Source of the DNA: Octopus vulgaris
Taxonomy: Eukaryota
Length of the DNA: 64,000 nucleotides
Reading direction: 5' to 3'
Assembly: GCA_951406725.2 (NCBI GenBank)
Contig: OX597832.1
Coordinates: 68,138,001 to 68,202,000, forward strand
In this document: positions 48,045-48,628 of the stretch, one piece after another
Layout: the number at the start of each line of letters is the position of its first letter
Position numbering within the stretch: position 1 is the first letter of the stretch
Notes under the pieces: model-generated
Database searches by the model: none
The model's input: the letters and a program-made list of their open reading frames with translations, nothing else
Told to the model about the DNA's origin: nothing
Program-made: the position numbers and the translations under genes

Positions 48045-48628
48045 ATTTAACAATTAAGGATAACTTCTTAATAAGGAATCTTAACAAGAAATTATCAGGT
48101 AGATAGCGTGAAAAACCTCATAAGAGAAAAAATTTCGAAAATAATTCTTTCTTATTGAACATATTAATTTATATATAGAGGGCATTATTACACATACATG
48201 CCACACGCTAAGAGGGACATTAGTCATTTCTACCAAAAAATTTTACTAATCATACCCAATGCAATTTTTCCAAAGCAAGACATTTAAAAAATGAATTTAG
48301 TCTTGTATCACCTGTGATTTCGTACTTATCGCAGATTCGACCGTACTCATCAGCAAGACTGATTCTGAACATATCATAAATAAACGAACCTGTACCGTCA
48401 AAGCCGAACAGCTATCTGTTCAACCCCAACGACGCACATGGGGAAGTTTACATATAATAAATCCGGTAAATGGCAGCCTTCTTCGAATTGCATTTCTTAA
48501 TAAGGAATCTTAACAAGAAGTTATCAGGTAGATAGCGAAATTTTTTCTCTTATGAGGTTTTTCACGCTATCTACCTGATAATTTCTTGTTAAGATTCCTT
48601 ATTAAGAAGTTATCCTTAATTGTTAAAT
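48045..48628 (-). mobile_element. Non-coding Penelope-type (retrozyme-like) element with direct repeat, inverted terminal copy and hammerhead, in (TA)n
   Basis: 48045-48136 is the reverse complement of 48536-48628. 48065-48108 is directly repeated at 48494-48537. A hammerhead lies at 48299-48360. Confidence 0.85.
48299..48360 (-). ncRNA. Type I hammerhead ribozyme, canonical core
   Basis: Minus strand: agtcttg-CTGATGA-gtac-(17 nt)-gtac-GAAA-tcac-ag-gtga-TA-caagact. Stems I (7 bp), II and III are all complementary. Confidence 0.85.

Follow-up and report, generated by a model that had tools for sequence, protein, structure and literature searches.

An insert of 584 bases, the focal element, lies between two (TA)n arrays in the window, i.e., the whole 64-kb stretch of DNA analyzed here (Table 1). 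Read in RNA sense, it runs from an inverted copy of its own 3' end through a 44-nt tail-less repeat and a body with a hammerhead ribozyme motif to the 3' end with its 20-nt tail; the tail is found on both inverted arms, and the upstream direct repeat is without it. The original prediction described a 44-bp direct repeat and identical inverted arms of about 92 bp, and both hold up: the direct-repeat copies agree at 43 of 44 positions with an offset of 429, and the arms at 93 of 93, including a 2-nt CG overlap at the junction. The only direct-repeat mismatch (48091/48520) turns a U-G pair of the 3' hairpin into C-G. Microhomology is found at both joints, spanning 3 nt where the upstream direct repeat is joined (48494-48496 equal 48065-48067) and the 2-nt CG at the arm B junction, which is the midpoint of a palindrome of 8 bp within arm A (48133-48140).

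Table 1. Features of the focal element and of other repeats in the window. Structures, cut sites and unit boundaries are predictions from sequence.
Feature	Position	Strand	Remarks
Focal element	48045-48628		584 bases; insert between two (TA)n arrays, read from sequence
Left (TA)n microsatellite flank	47910-48044		likely target of the insertion
Right (TA)n microsatellite flank	about 48627/48629 to 49045
Inferred monomer, part	48045-48496	minus	452 nt of about 480 nt; non-coding, 33% GC
Arm A	48045-48137	minus	3'-terminal 93 nt of the element
Tail	48045-48064	minus	20 nt, 3' end of element RNA; offset-429 match starts only at 48065
3'-terminal hairpin	48059-48096	minus	predicted; followed by 14 unpaired nt
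Direct repeat, downstream copy	48065-48108	minus	44 nt
Direct repeat, upstream copy	48494-48537	minus	tail-less end of next monomer
Arm B	48536-48628	plus	inverted copy of 3'-terminal 93 nt, including tail
Type I hammerhead motif	48299-48360	minus	62 nt; predicted cut between 48306 and 48305
Stem I	48360-48354/48305-48299	minus	7 bp
Core CUGAUGA	48353-48347	minus
Stem II	48346-48343/48325-48322	minus	4 bp, G10.1-C11.1; extended by a second 4-bp helix
GAAA	48321-48318	minus
Stem III	48318-48315/48310-48307	minus	4 bp, near-palindromic
Triplet AUA	H17 = 48306	minus	predicted cut after 48306
Second insert	37387-38094	plus	same layout, TA flanks
Old 3'-end fragment of focal family	35436-35600	minus	about 70% identical; shorter terminal hairpin
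Large inverted duplication	49046-54116		shares TA array with focal element
(AAT)n-associated repeat family	17416-18326; 28340-28814
Inverted arms	44883-44920/45801-45838		38 bp, identical
LINE-like element	54646-57542	minus	RT frame
Neptune-type PLE	60604-63480	minus	5'-truncated; RT and GIY-YIG frame
PLE ORF	61661-63295	minus	open 544-aa frame; RVT_1 and GIY-YIG

The focal element thus has a direct pLTR-like repeat, a 3' tail and an inverted truncated 5' copy, which are features of insertions by Penelope-like elements (PLEs), for which a direct pLTR, an inverted truncated pLTR and a tail have been described (PMC3846280, PMC8557442). An AT-rich or microsatellite target, likewise expected of PLEs, is present as the (TA)n around the focal element and recurs as a TA-flanked copy in one public sequencing run (X4, below); in pure (TA)n flanks a target-site duplication is not readable. 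The original prediction took the insert to be slightly longer than one monomer, as would result from reverse transcription of a circular or multimeric RNA or from a pLTR plus tail; the length and the pLTR-plus-tail anatomy are supported, as is read-through of an intact cleavage site. Its description as young is harder to sustain, as zero differences over 93 bp bound arm divergence only below about 3.2% (95%) and the direct repeat has one mismatch; the insertion is recent but not datable. Reverse transcription appears to have started at 48045, and the predicted 3'-terminal hairpin (-17.1 kcal/mol, z -3.3, equally stable in 0 of 200 shuffles) is, on this folding model, a candidate recognition or RT-start signal.

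A type I descriptor search of both strands of the window returned the focal hammerhead as its single match, and dinucleotide shuffles matched in 0 of 100 cases at the observed stem lengths; two relaxed settings gave matches in 2 and 5 of 100. The motif has the type I core CUGANGA, GAAA, an NUH triplet and stems I-III, with stem I open; the sequence therefore bears out the predicted minus-strand hammerhead with an intact core and its cut site. Within the focal element, Rfam gave Hammerhead_HH9, a model of another subfamily, at 14.7 bits against a gathering score of 52 (E 1.4), and the 150 listed of 276 Rfam matches over the window were to miRNA or snoRNA models, all under the gathering score and nearly always in simple repeats. 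Seven substitutions are listed within the 62-nt motif among other copies, none at core bases: three keep the pair as G-U, three lie in loop 2, and one, minor, breaks a pair.

That the hammerhead has three paired stems, as originally proposed, is only partly upheld. Predicted pair probabilities in the lone ribozyme are 0.69-0.98 for stems I and II but at most 0.03 for stem III, which is outcompeted by pairing with the core; the active monomer fold is predicted at -13.7 vs. -15.8 kcal/mol, with a weight of 0.8%. Two ribozymes co-folded, by comparison, are predicted to pair as a double hammerhead whose cores stay open (-39.4 vs. 2 x -15.8 kcal/mol). Such a dimeric (double hammerhead) cleavage mode is described for animal type I motifs (PMC4209133), and in vitro cleavage of Xenopus retrozyme dimers is reported for only one of nine (10.64898/2026.07.22.740005). 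Cleavage is plausible on these models and probably requires two ribozymes. The 452-nt linear unit is predicted to be more structured than its shuffles (z -5.2, 0 of 60), as is a 429-nt circular unit (z -3.5, 0 of 60; plus strand circular, z -2.4, 1 of 60), and the whole-unit fold would sequester the 5' strand of stem I. Under a published definition (10.64898/2026.07.22.740005), an active non-LTR retrozyme locus has at least two units in succession, each with a complete hammerhead; the focal copy, with one hammerhead, falls outside this definition and is, by prediction, a dead-end monomer, i.e., a solo derivative.

Part of the focal stretch is present in 20 of 24 listed public runs, representing nine studies and four organism labels. 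We aligned the contigs of four of them to the 584 bases, namely DNA runs X1 and X2 and presumed RNA run X4 from organism A, and DNA run X3 from organism B; X4 was not used as evidence of expression, and none of the runs with part of the stretch is recorded as RNA. The three DNA runs contributed 1,232-2,796 contigs each (1267 in X1, 2796 in X2 and 1232 in X3) and X4 contributed 26, of which 539, 1040, 492 and 14 (X1, X2, X3 and X4) fit two places. Most are 90-99% alike, and so many variant contigs on 584 bases, present in all four runs, point to a high-copy family, in keeping with the expectation that the element is multi-copy. Contig depth gives no copy number; it is higher near the RNA 3' end, drops at 48305 in X1 and X3 and rebounds at 48345, from which we draw no inference. 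Among the listed contigs we saw none with two hammerheads.

Start points, which the original prediction proposed to check for circular permutation, appear not to be freely permuted: the focal arms end at 48045 and 48628, and the listed contig pieces that reach an element end stop at 48045-48051 or 48622-48628. Fold-back points vary, with joints elsewhere in other copies from 48131 to 48541 (X1) and from 48239 to 48559 (X3), each a single contig with 22-letter sides and 85% likeness and weak singly. This combination of fixed ends and variable fold-back points is the one seen with Penelope, where the RT start is fixed. At 48080 and 48111, loose ends in X2 and X4 mark a variant subfamily with changes on both arms of the 3' hairpin; these occur in separate contigs and would be compensatory if present in the same copies. 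A scan of metagenome, prokaryote-genome and viral contigs with a 26-nt motif gave no matches, and a 19-nt 3' motif gave six vs. 0.02 by chance, a circular comparison in that the pattern was derived from these copies.

Other copies also bear on the length of the monomer, originally given as about 430 bp. A single X3 contig (depth 22.4) links 48496 to 48045 via 28 letters, so that 452 + 28 = 480 nt with the tail included. Record 26 of X4 (227 nt) returns from 48385 to 48046, with 36 letters matching before the gap and 51 after it; the gap leaves at most 140 letters, and a 480-nt unit needs exactly 140, a fit by length. These two contigs are candidates for head-to-tail units in the family, and together with the 488-nt repeat of a probable relative in the window (below) they argue for a monomer that is probably about 480 nt, rather than about 430. 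The 429 spacing would then likely be 480 minus 51, i.e., a 51-nt skip over the 3-nt overlap. Record 7 of X1 crosses the focal 429 junction by about 10 letters and then diverges, and because it crosses the same junction, the skip may either recur, PLEs having a second RT start without a tail, or have become fixed in one subfamily.

The second insert has a 162-bp direct repeat at an offset of 488, 92.6% identical and including the tail, as well as a perfect 3' terminal hairpin and a 55-nt local fold-back arm (37387-37441). Its type I hammerhead is degenerate (core 37794, predicted site 37840, closing pair of stem II broken) and lies about 250 nt from the 3' end, compared to 261 in the focal element. 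Whole-unit homology between the two was rejected, as their alignment does not reach significance (z 0.65 global, 1.24 local). At the 3' end, however, both align to the old fragment at 35436-35600 (z 5.3 and 3.9-4.2; about 2 when the two are compared directly), which by sequence makes kinship of the two probable. The hairpin fold of that fragment is not significant (z -1.2).

Several other repeats in the window also have inverted parts. The arms of the large duplication next to the focal element are 100% identical over 49046-49249/53913-54116 and 49990-50294/52898-53202, and hammerhead-like motifs at 49095 (minus) and 54067 (plus), with U-U closing stem II, lie about 45 nt from the arm end. In the (AAT)n-associated family, a palindrome centered near 17669 mirrors a 98-bp piece, the AAT array and 122 bp of the repeat. 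The 38-bp arms at 44883-44920/45801-45838 extend through a CT/GA tract, with about 600 bp of unique sequence between them. The LINE-like element has an RT frame (RVT_1, E 2e-27), and its upstream frame looks AP endonuclease-like by eye.

The same genome holds an autonomous PLE, located in the window. Its frame encodes RT and GIY-YIG with a CX4CX2C motif before the nuclease, the linker of Neptune/Nematis-type elements, which has been suggested to help (TA)n targeting (PMC8557442). In this copy the 3' end recurs as an identical inverted stretch of 188 bp, TA lies at either end, and no hammerhead was detected in the 3' region of about 1 kb. The closest relatives of this PLE that carry a name come from bivalves or from assemblies of bivalve symbionts, which points to a mollusc, and the microsatellite load together with a 184-bp repeat suggests an octopus; a search for related loci with its protein gave 589 pattern matches, none confirmed. 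We rejected this PLE as the partner of the focal element, since the two are without nucleotide similarity (z about 0) and their 3' ends are not common to both. It demonstrates that the machinery and its footprint are present here, not that it is the partner. The focal element itself lacks the ORF with RT and GIY-YIG of an autonomous EN+ PLE: against 120 PLE proteins the best tblastn match was E 0.16, and no HMM domain scored better than E 2.3.

We consider it likely that the focal element is a solo copy of about 1.1 units of a non-autonomous, PLE-dependent hammerhead element of the non-LTR retrozyme type, copied into (TA)n. On this model, transcription of a head-to-tail source locus would yield a multimer for paired hammerheads to cut into units of about 480 nt, which may circularise. 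A PLE enzyme would recognise the 3' region with its terminal hairpin, nick (TA)n and prime cDNA at 48045. The focal copy reads through the uncut hammerhead site into the end of the next monomer, which makes it likely that the template was circular, multimeric or re-entered by a template jump. The RT would then have skipped 51 nt over the 3-nt microhomology, copied 41 more nt and stopped, while the other end would have been made from the same 3' start and the two ends joined over CG. More tentatively, this may be a still-active family of circRNAs of about 480 nt with hammerheads in a mollusc-type genome, in which a PLE starts at a fixed point behind the conserved 3' hairpin, makes more than one turn across the re-ligated cleavage site and primes both cut ends of (TA)n, so that the insertions would document steps still missing from the retrozyme cycle; we regard this extended reading as possible but doubtful.

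The inverted end had been attributed to snap-back, and a version of that idea would have a monomer of about 430 nt and local self-priming of the cDNA 3' end. The offset of 429 fits it directly, a 429-nt subfamily may exist given the X1 contig that crosses the same junction, 48494-48608 can form a 44-bp stem, and the second insert has in 37387-37505 what looks like a local fold-back. The junction also sits on a palindrome, and palindrome self-priming has been proposed for PLE inversions (PMC3846280). Nevertheless, arm B contains 27 nt (48109-48135) that are absent from the adjacent 44-nt repeat, and at the sole diagnostic site it has A, the arm-A allele, where the adjacent repeat has G. Arm B was thus not copied from the neighboring cDNA end, and local snap-back was rejected on this basis; in addition, a 429-nt circle would be without the 20-nt tail present at both insert ends, and junctions containing the tail occur in X3 and, by length, in X4, so that we regard this account as very improbable. 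Arm B may have been primed separately at the opposite nick, again from that 3' start, with chances somewhat better than even: the arm stops precisely where the element does, the TA flanks do not mirror each other, and purified PLE protein, a predicted dimer, cuts and extends both strands (PMC11167929). It is slightly favored over a long-range switch of the RT onto its own cDNA, 400 nt back, to which we give a little less than an even chance and which draws on the palindrome-centered junction, on self-priming at palindromes as proposed for rotifer PLEs (PMC3846280) and on the resemblance of the 37387-37441 arm to a true local fold-back. Arms that are 100% identical would also result if reads or the assembly had folded back artefactually in TA-rich sequence, and the aligned contigs, which represent about 76-100% of each run, leave the junction flank at about 48507-48537 uncovered, although this is not proof of absence. 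Such an artefact is highly improbable, as the arms are 400 bp apart and end exactly at the element boundary between unmirrored TA flanks, fold-back joints lie elsewhere in other copies, and other inserts in the window have the same layout.

In the main rival reading there is no independent small element, and the focal insert is what 5' truncation left of a full-length autonomous PLE in partial tandem, comprising only pLTR/3' UTR with the usual inverted end. Truncation at the 5' end, partial tandem structure and an inverted copy are reported for most PLE insertions (PMC8557442), an ORF accompanies such anatomy in the PLE at 60604-63480, and in one X4 contig (record 29, presumed RNA) the copy stops at 48355 and then runs into TA; a continuation beyond 48496 into an ORF could lie among 239 loose ends and 5308 pieces beyond those listed. 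We nonetheless judge this origin unlikely. If a 3-4 kb element were truncated at random, the tandem junctions seen (focal copy, X1 record 7, X3, X4 by length, and the 488-nt insert) would not be expected to cluster as they do, at 449-488 nt from the 3' end. No protein remnant was found in the focal element. A predicted helix closes the unit at 48494, and stem III is a real stem, unlike the minimal motifs described as typical of animal pLTRs (PMC4209133). Helitrons and Helentrons have subterminal repeats, a 3' hairpin and an association with microsatellites. A non-autonomous DNA element of this type that happens to carry a hammerhead would share the terminal hairpin and microsatellite context of the focal element, yet the duplication of one end in inverted form, at break points that vary, the tail-less repeat and the conserved ribozyme core fit an RNA-templated PLE pathway, making such an element the least credible of the accounts weighed here.

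How PLE tandems and inverted ends form, and whether PLEs carry retrozymes, are described as open questions (PMC8557442, PMC11167929, 10.64898/2026.07.22.740005). If true, the extended reading given above would provide direct genomic evidence that PLE proteins mobilise retrozymes, so far inferred from phylogeny and from their co-occurrence, and would put a name to a cis signal that can be tested. The element rises above the routine in that a retrozyme-type unit here bears the full footprint of a PLE insertion together with a candidate 3' signal, so that the PLE-retrozyme link becomes testable; elements of this kind are already known in other animals, and the gain is mechanistic detail rather than a new system. 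Such a small family, in which many copies differ, 3' ends are fixed and inversion points vary, also offers a convenient natural data set, and it suggests the 3' hairpin plus tail as a minimal substrate for in vitro priming. In paper listings and the openings of abstracts, and in the papers cited here, we found no description of the focal family; the supplements of the 2026 preprint may list relatives.

Non-LTR retrozymes, which have been discussed as PLE derivatives, share with the focal element a type I hammerhead, a short, non-coding and well-folded unit and low GC (33-34% here, against a criterion of <45%), and with its family a high copy number, putative head-to-tail junctions, co-occurring PLEs and solo “monomer” copies as described (PMC7229834; 10.64898/2026.07.22.740005). 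Their units are given as about 170-400 nt in PMC7229834, shorter than the roughly 480 nt proposed here, whereas the range of 51-972 bp in 10.64898/2026.07.22.740005 covers it. The focal copy differs further as a dispersed 1.1-mer with one ribozyme. It also has a PLE-type inverted end, a tail and a TA target, while neither “inverted” nor “target site” occurs in the main text of PMC7229834.

MRC1 and other Chlamys elements (PMC8557442) are similarly non-autonomous and PLE-dependent, and form pLTRs and head-to-tail insertions. They differ in being green algal, in belonging to a clade reported to be without canonical hammerheads, and in sharing 3' ends with known autonomous partners (PMC8557442), whereas the focal 3' end is not shared with the PLE in the window.

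The focal element differs from EN+ PLEs (Pen2a_Av, PMC3846280; PMC8557442; Anolis Poseidon, PMC11167929) in that it carries neither an RT/GIY-YIG ORF nor a remnant of one; its tail is 20 nt, compared to 30-40 bp (PMC8557442), and its hammerhead has a 4-bp stem III where that of PLEs is described as minimal. The two are alike in their insertion structure, with a tail-less direct repeat, an inverted 5'-truncated copy of the 3' end, a palindrome at the inversion junction, microhomology joins and an AT-rich or microsatellite target. PLEs have been described as starting RT internally, just past a stem-loop, cleaving AT-rich sequence and extending both strands (PMC11167929), and the focal element shares with them a fixed end just behind a stem-loop as well as the type I hammerhead.
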